This document shows, one piece after another, positions 27,205-33,709 of a DNA stretch of 64,000 nucleotides. Under the pieces are notes generated by a model. It worked only from the letters and a program-made list of their open reading frames with translations. It made no database searches and had not been told where the DNA came from. The stretch's first letter is position 1. Each line of letters begins with the position of its first letter. This stretch comes from Dictyostelium discoideum (Eukaryota), in the NCBI GenBank assembly GCA_000004695.1, contig CM000152.2, positions 320,001 through 384,000 of the forward strand. Direction: 5' to 3'. The translations under genes were made by a program, and so were the position numbers.

Positions 27205-29089
27205 ATGACTTCAAATAACAATAAAACGTCACAATATAATCCTATTAATAATAAAAACATTAGCAACAGTAATCCTAACAATAATAGACTTTCAATTGAT
27301 AAACAAAAACTTATTGAAATTTTTAATTTCGAAAGTAACACAAATAACAATAACATTGATTATGATATAATAAATAATAATAATAATAATAATAATTCTA
27401 ACAATAAAAATAATAATAATAATAATAATAATAATAATAATAATAATAATAATAATAATAATAATAGTAATAATAATAATAATAATAATAGTAATAGTAC
27501 AAATAATAGTAATAATAAAAATTTAAAATCAGATGATACAATAAATAATATAAATAATTCACATAATAATATTGAAAATAATATAAATATAAATAGAAAT
27601 AAAATGGATGATAATAGTAATAATAATAATAATAATAATAACAAAAACAATAATAGTAGTGATAGTAATAATAATAATAATAATAATAATAATAATAATA
27701 ATAATAATAATAATAATAATAATAATAATAATAATAATAATAATAATAATAATAATAATAATAATAATAATAATAATAATAATTCTAAATTTAATAATAT
27801 AAATAATTTTACATTTCCACCACAAAATAATGGTGGTAAATTAAAATTTAATTTAAACCCTATTGTTAATATTGATATAGATGAATTGGGTGATAAAATT
27901 AATAATTTTAAAATTGTGGATAATTCAATTATTGGTTCAACTACCTCTTTACAAAATAGTAATACAAGTATTGGTGATGGTTTACTTCATTCTTCAATTA
28001 ATAGTTCAACAAGTAATAATTCTTCACCAACAAATAGTAAATTCATTTTAAATCGTGATAATAGTAATAGTAGTATAGGTAGTAGTAATAGTAGTAAAAA
28101 TAATAATAATATTAATAGTAGTAGTGCAACAAATACTAGTACAACAACAACTACTACTACTACTACAAATACAGCAACAACTACAACAAATACTGGATAT
28201 AATTTAGATAGTAGTAGTGCAACAAATACAGCAACAACAACAACAACAAATACAGGATATAATTTAGATAGTAGTATTGGTGATATTAATTCAACATCAC
28301 CAACAATGGATTCAAAGAAAAGAAGATTTTCATTATACGTTTATCAACATCCAACTGATGAACAAAAAAGACACATTTCAGAACTGTATGGTTATAAAAG
28401 AGCATGATGACCATGGTTATAAATATACTCATGATTCAAGTATAGATGGTGAAGCTGATTCTTCATCTGATAGTTATACTACATCATTCAATAGAATGAA
28501 TAATATAAATAAAAGTTCACCAAGTTCAATTTCACCACCAATACCAAACTATCCACACACTATATTACCAAATTCAACAACACCAACACCACCAACAACA
28601 TCAACAACTAATAATAATACAAATGTTGCAACAAGTGTAACAACTCAATTACCACCACCATCAATTGTTAATCAAATTGATAGTATTTTAGAACCAGCAC
28701 CAATTGATTTATCACAAATACCACAATCTTATTTTTCAACCAATTATAAATCAAGTGGTAATAATATAAATACATCAAACTATAAACAATCACAATATTT
28801 GGATGATGAATATGATGAAAAGAAAGCGGCATCACAACCAATTCAACCACCACTTTCAACAGCAAAAGATTGGAATGCGGAATTTCAAAATTTAGTTTAC
28901 AATAATAAAATTGAAGGTTATAGAGAATTGAGTAAACTTGCTCATGATTTTGTTTATACCGCTAAAATATATGGTAAAGTTATCATATCTGAATTAACAT
29001 TACCATTACATTTAAAAACAATTAAACCAATTAATATTGGTGGTGTTGCTGGTGGTCATAAATATATTGCATTAGGTATTTTATTTAAA
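27205..29089 (+). CDS. CLU-domain / cysteine-containing-LRR fusion protein, exon 1: long poly-N N-terminus, then the start of a CLU (clustered-mitochondria / eIF3-p135-like) domain. Contains an apparent +1 frameshift in the A4 run at 28396-28399
   Basis: Track ORFs 27181..28407 and 28277..29125 overlap in adjacent frames. Removing one A gives ...ELYGYKEHDDHGYKYTHDS. The exon ends GILFK|GTAAGT (donor 29090, phase 0). Confidence 0.6.
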
Positions 29090-29184
29090 GTAAGTAAAAA
29101 AATAAAAAATAAAAATAAAAAATAAATAAAAAATAAAGATAAAAAAATTAATTATAATTATAATTATAATTATTATTATTATAG

Positions 29185-32100: not shown

Positions 32101-33709
32101 TCATCATTCTCTTCAGAGAAAACAACTTCAGTTAATCATAGACATAGTATTTCTGCAACATTAAATGTACCATTTGTTAGTTCAAATTCATTAGCACAAT
32201 CATCACCTGGTAGTCCAATTTCACCAAGAATAAATAATAGTAATCCATCACCATCACCATCATCAACTTTACCACAACATAATTCAACATCAAGTTTAAT
32301 ATCACCATTATCATCATCATCATCATCATCTCAATCATCATCTCAATCATCATCAAATGTTAATACAACTGTATCAATGTCAACAACATCATCATTGGAA
32401 TCATTTGTATATGTTAAACCATTTATAAATTTACAAAATTTAAATTTAAATGATTGTAAATCAATTAATGATCATCAATTAATTAATATAGCTCTAATGC
32501 AATTACCATTGGTAAATGTTTATTTGAAAAGATGTAATGTTTCAGATTTATCAGTGGTTCAATTGGTTCAAAATTGTCCAAGATTATCAACTTTGGAACT
32601 CTCTTATACAACCATTACAGATCAATCAGTGTTGGCAATCTCAAGTGGTTGTTTATCTTTGAAAGAATTACATTTGGATGGATGTTTAGCGGTTGGTTGG
32701 TTATCAATTGAAAAGTTGGTTAGAACGATTCACGATATACGTTTACTATCATTGGCTGAATGTCCTGGTGCTGCCAATGATAATACTTTACGTTTGATTG
32801 GAAAGTATTGTACCAATATGCATTTCTTAACATTGTCTTCAAATACTACAATAACCGATTCCGGTATGATTAGCATGTGTAAACATACAACTTAACCTAT
32901 TGGATTTGAATATCAATTTTTGTGGAAATCTAACCGATGCCTCTATCAATCAAATCGCCGTTAGTTGTGTCAAACTTCGTACTTTGAAAATGATTGGTCT
33001 TAATCATGTCACCTCTTTGAAATCAATTGGTACTCATTCTTTGGATTTGGTTTATTTGGACATTAGTGAGTGTCATAAGATCTCTCAGGGTTTGGGCGCA
33101 ATTGCAAAGGGTTGTTCGAAATTGACAACTTTTAAACTCAAGAGATGCTATGGCTTCAAGGATGCTTCATTAATCTCTGACGATGGCGATCTTCATCTAA
33201 TGCAACGTTTAACCATTTTAAATTGGAGTTATGTAAACATTGAATTCAATGCCATTCACTCCATATCTCATAGTTGTCAATACCTAACCAGTTTAAATAT
33301 CTCCTATTGTAAGAGTTTAAATGATAATGCCCTCGAAAGAATTGCAAACTCTTTGACAAATATAAAGAAATTGAAATTTGATGGAATTATCAATATCACC
33401 GATGATGGTATTAAATCGCTAAGTGATGGTCCAATCTTTAGTGCAGTCGAAGTTTTGTCAATGGTAGGTTGTAGAAAGATCTCTGATGTTTCTGCTCATC
33501 ATATCCTAAGATTTAATAATTTGAGAAAGTTATCAATTGGTGGTTCATTAATGACAACAAATGGTGTAGATATTATTGCTTCAAGTTCATTTGAATTGAT
33601 TAAAATTCATGTTAGAAATTGTTTAAATATTAATCCAACAAGTTTAAAAGAAAATCATCCTCATATATTTATAGATACAACTCAAAAAGATTATAATGTA
33701 TTTATTTAG
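29185..33709 (+). CDS. same gene, exon 2: rest of the CLU domain (LALDSQGLYVGD...LMALIDYRGYRLVAMSLLPINSD...KRYLLDFARVFPPQ), long linker, then at least 10 cysteine-containing leucine-rich repeats (LDGCTQITNDTI..., LSLAGCQNIS, LNLNDCKSINDHQL...). Apparent +1 frameshift at the TT of 32892-32893
   Basis: Acceptor TTATTATAG|TTAGCA (29183-29184). Track ORFs 29230..32895 and 32900..33709 (TTG pseudo-start) are adjacent frames. Deleting one T gives ...CKHTTNLLDLNINFCGNLTD, restoring LRR periodicity. Confidence 0.65.

Follow-up and report, generated by a model that had tools for sequence, protein, structure and literature searches.

The gene at positions 27205-33709 on the forward strand of a 64,000-nucleotide stretch of Dictyostelium discoideum DNA (GCA_000004695.1, contig CM000152.2; the whole stretch is called the window below) encodes a large protein in which a CLU domain is followed by leucine-rich repeats (LRRs) of the FBXL type. 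It is a single gene with two exons and one intron, and its reading frame is broken at two points, each by a single nucleotide. Deletion of one A and one T, together with splicing of the intron, yields one open reading frame (ORF) of 2135 codons. The two extra bases, A at 28396 and T at 32892, are most probably consensus errors in the reference sequence; we infer that they stem from error and not from a mutation confined to the clone that was sequenced. The real gene would then run continuously through both sites, and the extra bases would have arisen in base calling or in the building of the consensus.

Syntenic DNA was obtained from five group-4 Dictyostelium genomes, located by means of their Vps11 orthologues. 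Each of them carries an intact orthologue of the gene, with a product of 2135 amino acids (aa) in the second D. discoideum assembly, GCA_054883475.1, 2095 aa in D. cf. discoideum, 2104 aa in D. citrinum, 2116 aa in D. firmibasis and 1964 aa in D. purpureum. Both extra bases are absent from all five. When window positions 16616-36615 are aligned with GCA_054883475.1, the extra A and the extra T are the sole differences along the 6.5-kb gene, and the translation of the repaired window agrees with the 2135-aa product of that assembly at every residue. The start codon and the total length likewise match the product annotated there. In a DNA alignment of all six genomes at the two junctions, both bases occur in the window only, while the neighbouring changes are mostly synonymous.

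The interruptions are visible in the ORFs themselves. Four long ORFs follow one another on the forward strand: 27181-28407 in frame 1, 28277-29125 in frame 2, 29185/29230-32895 again in frame 1, and 32900-33709 in frame 2. The step from the second to the third is a canonical intron, which joins ...GILFK to LALDSQG... within the CLU domain. In four other genomes, the ORF is likewise intact once an intron of 89-123 nucleotides (nt) at the equivalent position is removed, and the D. purpureum orthologue has both this shared intron and a second, gained one. At the first break, the stop codon TGA at 28405-28407 arises from the extra A; at the second, the stop codon TAA at 32893-32895 arises from the extra T. 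Across the two junctions the repaired protein reads ...ELYGYKEHDDHGYK... and ...CKHTTNLLDLNINF.... An earlier note on this DNA, made from its letters alone, had placed two +1 breaks in the A4 run at 28396-28399 and in the TT at 32892-32893, each mended by the deletion of one base, and these coordinates proved exact. Its description of a coding frame broken twice is correct as regards the insertions and incomplete as regards the gene structure, as the real intron at 29090-29184 was not mentioned.

Orthologous proteins of five other dictyostelid genera are continuous through both break sites. In every orthologue, the first break is crossed by the motif RRFS(L/M)YVYQ(H/Q)PTDEQ...ELYGY(K/R)(E/G)H...GY, the latter part of which is also written ...ELYGYKEH(D/N)DHGY... 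in the orthologue alignment. The second is crossed by an LRR of the sequence ...MCKHT.NL.ELNI..C.NLTD..., with the general form ...M.KH...L.ELNI..C.N(L/I)TD.... Because the conserved protein is continuous over both sites in every orthologue, the breaks are real insertions of one nucleotide each into the ancestral frame, and neither introns nor chance ORF neighbours. The open frame after the second break extends over 269 codons, and a base-composition estimate puts the probability of such a frame by chance at ~1e-11 in DNA this rich in A and T. The two ends of the protein are shared as well: the C-terminus ...IDTTQKDYNVF is common to the window protein and the dictyostelid orthologues, and the N-terminal block KLKFNLNPIVNIDIDELGDKINNFKI is conserved in the orthologues of Polysphondylium violaceum and Tieghemostelium lacteum (P0001, P0004).

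Selection on the gene was estimated by pairwise Nei-Gojobori ratios of nonsynonymous to synonymous substitution (dN/dS) from codon alignments of D. discoideum with D. cf. discoideum, D. citrinum, D. firmibasis and D. purpureum. The ratio is 0.19-0.34 in the low-complexity N-terminal segment before the first break, 0.05-0.10 in the middle segment and 0.02-0.10 in the segment after the second break, values that describe the lineage and not the AX4 clone itself. All three segments are thus under purifying selection. Since dN/dS is low throughout, the gene is functional in this lineage, including those parts that the window sequence leaves untranslated.

A comparison with GCA_054883475.1 widened to ~58 kb of the window places the two extra bases in a broader pattern. 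Most differences are length changes in intergenic homopolymers of 11-47 nt. Wherever long A or T runs differ, the window has the longer run, by 1-20 nt (for example, at 6153, 12066-12423, 48896, 58939 and 60243), and this looks less like polymorphism than like a systematic bias of the technology behind one of the assemblies. Outside the long homopolymers, ~9 substitutions and 8 short indels were found over the ~58 kb; the substitutions are mostly transversions, and their density is ~1.5e-4. Four of the short indels break two other genes, both of which are intact in GCA_054883475.1. One is a small TRAF-type zinc-finger gene at ~20850-21247 on the reverse strand, whose exon 1 is frameshifted in the window relative to both GCA_054883475.1 and D. 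cf. discoideum. The other is a His/Asn/Gln-rich gene, in which three deletions and one further mismatch, at 51381, all lie within 290 bp of a repeat region. The window splits this gene into the ORFs 49004-51370 and 51482-52051, the net change of -3 allowing the frame to be regained after the third deletion; its counterparts are a single ORF of 1016 codons in GCA_054883475.1 and an annotated product of 1052 aa in D. cf. discoideum. A homology search with 49004-51124 returned no homologues, its candidate list probably being saturated by low-complexity words.

The differences were polarised with D. cf. discoideum as the outgroup, counting only those that could be aligned unambiguously. At 10 of 10 polarisable differences the odd state is in the window (two-sided binomial p ~0.002). 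This argues against two diverging strains, because those should share derived states roughly equally. Saxer et al. reported 1917 candidate substitutions relative to the AX4 reference in three AX4-derived lines, with called sites amounting to 34.65 Mb summed over the three lines, or ~11.5 Mb per line (PMC3466296). Of these differences, 1916 were shared by the three resequenced lines, and the authors attributed them to reference errors or to differences of the ancestor clone (PMC3466296). The substitution density in the window, ~1.5e-4, is comparable to the ~1.7e-4 implied by that study. As the mutation rate of D. discoideum is only 2.9e-11 per site per generation (PMC3466296), that many real mutations in a laboratory lineage are implausible. 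A precedent for errors in coding sequence also exists: Goldberg et al. revised four kinase genes in which the genome sequence contained frameshift or stop errors (PMC1420674). A literature search on frameshift errors in the AX4 reference, on new Dictyostelium assemblies and on the neighbouring DDB_G identifiers found nothing relevant.

Several points weigh against consensus error as the explanation. The identity of the window as the AX4 reference is itself inferred. It is based on a composition typical of dictyostelids (~22% GC, coding tracts of poly-Asn/Gln, and introns that are short, AT-rich and bounded by GT..AG) and on the window-encoded uracil-DNA glycosylase (UNG), DDB_G0278151 and Vps11, which are 100% the same as D. 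discoideum AX4 entries; the window is thus probably the 2005 AX4 reference, chromosome 3. In an assembled sequence, an error and a mutation private to the AX4 clone would look alike. Long homopolymers are systematically shorter in GCA_054883475.1, and the differences of A4 versus A3 and T2 versus T1 match the direction of this apparent bias. Moreover, three frame-broken genes among the ~20 in the window exceed the rate of 4 corrected genes in 285 kinase genes (Goldberg et al.), and these broken genes may be the reason why the window was chosen. Under-calling of homopolymers by GCA_054883475.1 was considered as the cause of the two differences and rejected, as four other species and the distant dictyostelid orthologues agree with that assembly; at 32892, moreover, T2 versus T1 is not a matter of homopolymer length.

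The most serious alternative to consensus error is that both insertions are real, either in the AX4 lineage or in the sequenced clone, making the locus a very young, strain-specific pseudogene and a recently inactivated, truncated allele of a conserved CLU-LRR gene. The extra bases do stand in the deposited sequence, the first of them would truncate the protein ahead of the CLU domain, and the ORF pieces of the window have no counterpart in the protein collection, which is compatible with annotation as a pseudogene. Genuine frameshifted pseudogenes are also present in AX4, as exemplified by 15 kinase pseudogenes (PMC1420674). However, this alternative demands two independent frameshifts in 6.5 kb that show zero substitutions relative to GCA_054883475.1, and a rate of ~3e-11 per site per generation makes such a double hit very improbable without strong selection, while the second frameshift would be neutral once the first was present. 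The window-only indels in two other genes, accompanied by transversion-rich, window-only substitutions at every polarisable site, form a pattern that fits sequence error and not lineage divergence or mutagenesis of the nitrosoguanidine type. Real mutation is therefore considered unlikely. It is rather doubtful that AX4, the standard laboratory strain of D. discoideum worldwide, is naturally null, through a double frameshift, for a CLU-LRR gene of 2135 aa that is conserved and under strong purifying selection across Dictyostelia; if true, an uncharacterised family of amoebozoan CLU-domain proteins would have a loss-of-function background at hand, and AX4 would differ genetically from other strains in a hitherto hidden way. 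A unitary pseudogene was rejected, given the intact 2135-codon ORF in GCA_054883475.1, the zero substitutions relative to it, and dN/dS of 0.02-0.34.

Two further explanations carry next to no weight. Programmed +1 frameshifting, or another form of recoding, at A-AAA-A (28396) and ACU-UAA-C (32892) could in principle give exactly the conserved full-length protein if each site were read in +1. At the first site, an A after the Lys AAA codon makes re-pairing possible, and the second has a stop codon in the A site. A stop codon in that position is a feature of the prfB and antizyme shift sites. Nevertheless, re-pairing from ACU to CUU is impossible at the second site, and recoding sites are conserved among orthologues, whereas neither of these shift sites is found in the five other group-4 genomes, the conspecific one included, all of which use a single frame. 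No stimulatory element was seen, and none was sought. As a conserved mechanism, programmed frameshifting is refuted by this comparison of genomes, and it is extremely improbable in any form. Overlooked short introns or alternative exon boundaries are just as improbable: a real frame-changing intron does exist at 29090-29184, and Dictyostelium introns are short and AT-rich, but no AT-rich GT...AG segment lies at either break, conserved coding sequence is unbroken over both sites in all orthologues, and the difference from GCA_054883475.1 is exactly 1 nt per site. The earlier note had listed consensus error, a decaying gene and programmed frameshifting as causes. The first is supported by the absence of the extra bases from GCA_054883475.1 and four sister species. 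Decay does not agree with the lack of other differences from the sister assembly or with dN/dS of 0.02-0.34, and frameshifting fails because both extra bases are missing from every related genome.

With the breaks read as consensus errors, the features of the gene and of the other short indels in the window are arranged as shown in Table 1.

Table 1. Features of the CLU-LRR gene and short differences from GCA_054883475.1 elsewhere in the window (window coordinates; residues of the repaired 2135-aa protein).
Feature	Coordinates	Strand	Details
Exon 1, before first extra base	27205..28395	+	Frame 1, ATG at 27205, residues 1-397
Short conserved motif RRFSLYVYQHPTDEQKRHISELYGYKEHDDHGYKYTHDS	28321..28438	+	Residues 373-411; first break inside
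Extra A	28396	+	A4 run 28396-28399 vs A3 in all other genomes compared; frame 1 to frame 2
Exon 1, after first extra base	28397..29089	+	Frame 2; Pro/Thr-rich linker and first third of CLU domain
CLU domain PF13236	28868..29601	+	Residues 555-767, intron-spanning
Intron, 95 nt	29090..29184	+	GTAAGT...TATAG, very AT-rich, within CLU domain
Exon 2, before second extra base	29185..32891	+	Frame 1
CLU-central / eIF3_p135 PF12807	29827..30339	+	Residues 843-1013; E=1.7e-7, 31.9 bits vs cut-off 22
Conserved helical region directly N-terminal to LRRs	31276..31557	+	Residues 1326-1419
LRR block 1, three FBXL-type repeats	31558..31800	+	Residues 1420-1500; model strands 140-194
Low-complexity insert between LRR 3 and LRR 4	31801..32421	+	Residues 1501-1707; Gln/Ser/Gly/Asn-rich
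LRR block 2, ~17 FBXL-type cysteine-containing repeats	32422..33706	+	Residues 1708-2135; holds second break
Extra T	32892	+	TT 32892-32893 vs single base in all other genomes compared; frame 1 to frame 2
Exon 2, after second extra base	32893..33709	+	Frame 2; stop TAA 33707-33709
One-base insertion	21198		T3 vs T2 on + strand; breaks small TRAF-type zinc-finger gene
Three single-base deletions	51127, 51360, 51415		Break His/Asn/Gln-rich gene 49004-52051 (+)
Intergenic short indels	33961; 54290-54292

The domain content of the repaired protein was established by Pfam searches. The CLU domain is matched with E=4.2e-64 and 216.9 bits (cut-off 24) over profile positions 1-224 of 225, and PF12807 sits downstream of it. 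LRR_4 and LRR_6 were also matched. The LRR region comprises ~20 repeats over ~715 residues, the low-complexity insert of 207 residues included. Among solved structures, the closest by sequence are FBXL2 (6o60_C, E=3.4e-22) and FBXL17 (E=8.5e-13), and TIR1, COI1 and FBXL5 are matched as well. The earlier note had proposed both the CLU domain and cysteine-containing LRRs of the F-box-partner type, and both are confirmed, the latter by the Pfam families and by FBXL2 and FBXL17 as the nearest proteins in sequence and fold. It had also assigned the repeats to the C-terminal 450 aa; repeats are indeed present there, and their extent is larger than was thought.

The fold of the C-terminus was predicted with AlphaFold for the last 704 residues of the P. 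violaceum orthologue, using an alignment of 8 sequences, with a mean predicted local distance difference test (pLDDT) of 78.6. In the model, a helical segment leads into three beta-alpha repeats, which a disordered insert separates from ~17 more; pLDDT is ~90 over the repeats. The helices at model residues 29-137 correspond to the helical region that precedes the LRRs. The insert differs in length among orthologues and is disordered in the model (pLDDT<50 at 227-272). In a Foldseek search against the PDB, FBXL2 and FBXL17 came out on top (E ~4e-16), followed by ribonuclease inhibitor and TIR1.

Domains that might have been expected from relatives were looked for by Pfam. No F-box was found at E<=0.01 from residue 368 to the C-terminus, and over the 294 residues that end with LRR block 1 even a limit of E<=10 gave none. 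No family of tetratricopeptide repeats (TPRs) appears in the Pfam results, the C-terminus being an LRR horseshoe instead. The N-terminal 582 residues gave no CLU_N or GSKIP-like domain at E<=10, with only a sub-threshold match to Mucin. The N-terminus (residues 1-397) is rich in Asn, Ser and Thr and disordered. Amid this disordered, fast-evolving sequence, the motif RRFSLYVYQHPTDEQK..ELYGYKEH..GY.Y.HDS (28321-28438) is found in all dictyostelid orthologues. Its RRFS element fits the consensus of basophilic kinases and may be a regulatory phosphosite or a 14-3-3 site.

The earlier note had regarded the combination of CLU with LRRs as a novel CLU architecture, a claim that does not stand: the same combination has already been deposited for five other dictyostelid genera, for Planoprotostelium and for Amorphochlora. 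In a homology search, the same full-length architecture was found in P. violaceum, Tieghemostelium lacteum, Heterostelium album, Acytostelium subglobosum (two proteins) and Cavenderia fasciculata, as well as in a metagenome protein from JGI (P0002) and two gene models from EukProt (P0003, P0007). The full-length dictyostelid orthologues show 55-70% identity, and their best local alignments span 58-99% of the query. Dozens of more distant proteins with CLU and LRRs occur in Planoprotostelium, Balamuthia, Pelomyxa and environmental assemblies, and many of them bear extra domains, such as UBC, SPRY or PH. For Tieghemostelium, Planoprotostelium and the rhizarian Amorphochlora, dedicated Pfam scans gave both CLU and LRR above threshold. 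The AX4 paralogue DDB_G0276089 (P0088) was set aside as a further example, since LRR is listed for it in the precomputed Pfam results and our own scan returned CLU and eIF3_p135 only. The architecture of CLU with FBXL-type LRRs is therefore already in public databases and is not new, and the family that carries it is widespread in Amoebozoa and functionally uncharacterised.

Neither the ORF pieces of the window nor the repaired 2135-aa protein has an exact match in the protein collection, an absence that says nothing about annotation status. The 2135-aa product of D. discoideum and the 2095-aa product of D. cf. discoideum are annotated on their contigs, yet they are absent from the homology matches. 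Because known annotated products are likewise missed, the lack of a near-identical match does not imply that the locus is unannotated. Several CLU proteins carry the names 'Histidine kinase A' or 'Histidine kinase', namely those of Tieghemostelium (P0004), Heterostelium (P0005), Cavenderia (P0008) and Pelomyxa (P0050, P0063, P0071). None of these mislabelled proteins contains a kinase or HATPase domain, and the naming looks like a propagated mis-annotation. Possibly, it arose since the true D. discoideum orthologue is absent from the AX4 protein set.

From its closest relatives, the dictyostelid CLU-LRR orthologues such as P. violaceum CYY_005583, the window protein differs in the two extra bases and in the lengths of low-complexity tracts. 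It shares with CluA, Clu1, Clueless and CLUH the order of PF13236 followed by PF12807. Those proteins end in TPR repeats, whereas the window protein ends in an FBXL-type LRR horseshoe, with no CLU_N or other N-terminal domain detected, and it belongs to a paralogue set expanded in Amoebozoa, outside the CluA orthologue group. CluA is one known CLU-domain paralogue in D. discoideum. Two others, CldA and CldB, bind the LRR/SH2 protein LrrB, and the complex regulates gene expression (PMC2906285). In that system CLU and LRR reside in separate partners, whereas here both modules are part of one polypeptide, which has no SH2 and no TPR; the LRRs are of the FBXL type here and of the ribonuclease-inhibitor/NOD-like type there. 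CLU paralogues of the D. discoideum group other than CldA and CldB show 33-37% identity over ~30% of the query in the homology search.

The repeats themselves resemble those of the FBXL receptors of SCF ubiquitin ligases (FBXL2, FBXL17, TIR1 and COI1), being LRRs of the same cysteine-containing, ~26-residue beta-alpha type. The array is longer, at ~20 repeats, and it comes without a detectable F-box. Because no F-box was detected even at E<=10, there is no evidence for SKP1 binding.

On these likenesses, the 2135-aa product may be pictured as a large cytosolic protein of the scaffold type. Its CLU and CLU-central core would be the module that is common to CluA/CLUH and CldA/CldB. The horseshoe of ~20 FBXL-like repeats, for which no link to SKP1 is predicted, would form a target-binding, protein-recognition surface on that core. 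This role of the horseshoe is proposed from its likeness to FBXL substrate receptors and from the example of the CldA/CldB-LrrB complex. The disordered N-terminus would contribute the conserved RRFS motif as a putative site for a basophilic kinase or a 14-3-3 protein.

The gene lies next to vps11 (23671-26615, reverse strand) and is transcribed divergently from it, with a RhoGEF gene downstream. This divergent pair is kept in D. discoideum, D. cf. discoideum, D. citrinum and D. firmibasis. In P. violaceum, CYY_005582 and CYY_005583 have consecutive locus tags on one contig of 36 kb, which suggests that the pairing of vps11 with the CLU-LRR gene is the same as in D. discoideum. In D. purpureum, the CLU-LRR gene is downstream of vps11 on the same strand. 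The intergenic region of the window is nearly pure A/T, apart from a GC-rich island of ~60 nt (CTTAAACAACAAAGAGGTGCGCTTTGTGACCAGTGTATGGCGAGGGTTGTTATCTAATACC) at ~26913-26973. The island is identical in GCA_054883475.1 and appears only partly conserved in D. cf. discoideum, where one match of 75% identity covers a 150-nt stretch that includes it. It has no Rfam or tRNA match, the Rfam and tRNA scans of the window being empty, and its role may be that of a shared promoter element or of a small RNA.

On the other side of vps11, at ~15000-23000 on the reverse strand, small genes with TRAF zinc-finger or MATH domains are arranged in tandem and include the overlapping ORFs 16192-16737 and 16671-17216. 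Because the gene content of this cluster varies among D. discoideum, D. cf. discoideum, D. citrinum and D. firmibasis, the TRAF/MATH family is in rapid turnover.

The gene described here is an ordinary member of a deposited, functionally uncharacterised family, and nothing points to a new mechanism. The value of the result is mainly curatorial, as it allows the reference annotation to be corrected. Should the window be the AX4 reference, the reference proteome probably lacks or mis-models a large, conserved gene under selection on account of two single-base errors, and at least two neighbouring genes appear to be likewise affected. Proteomics, knockout design and orthology inference that start from this reference would then miss the affected genes.

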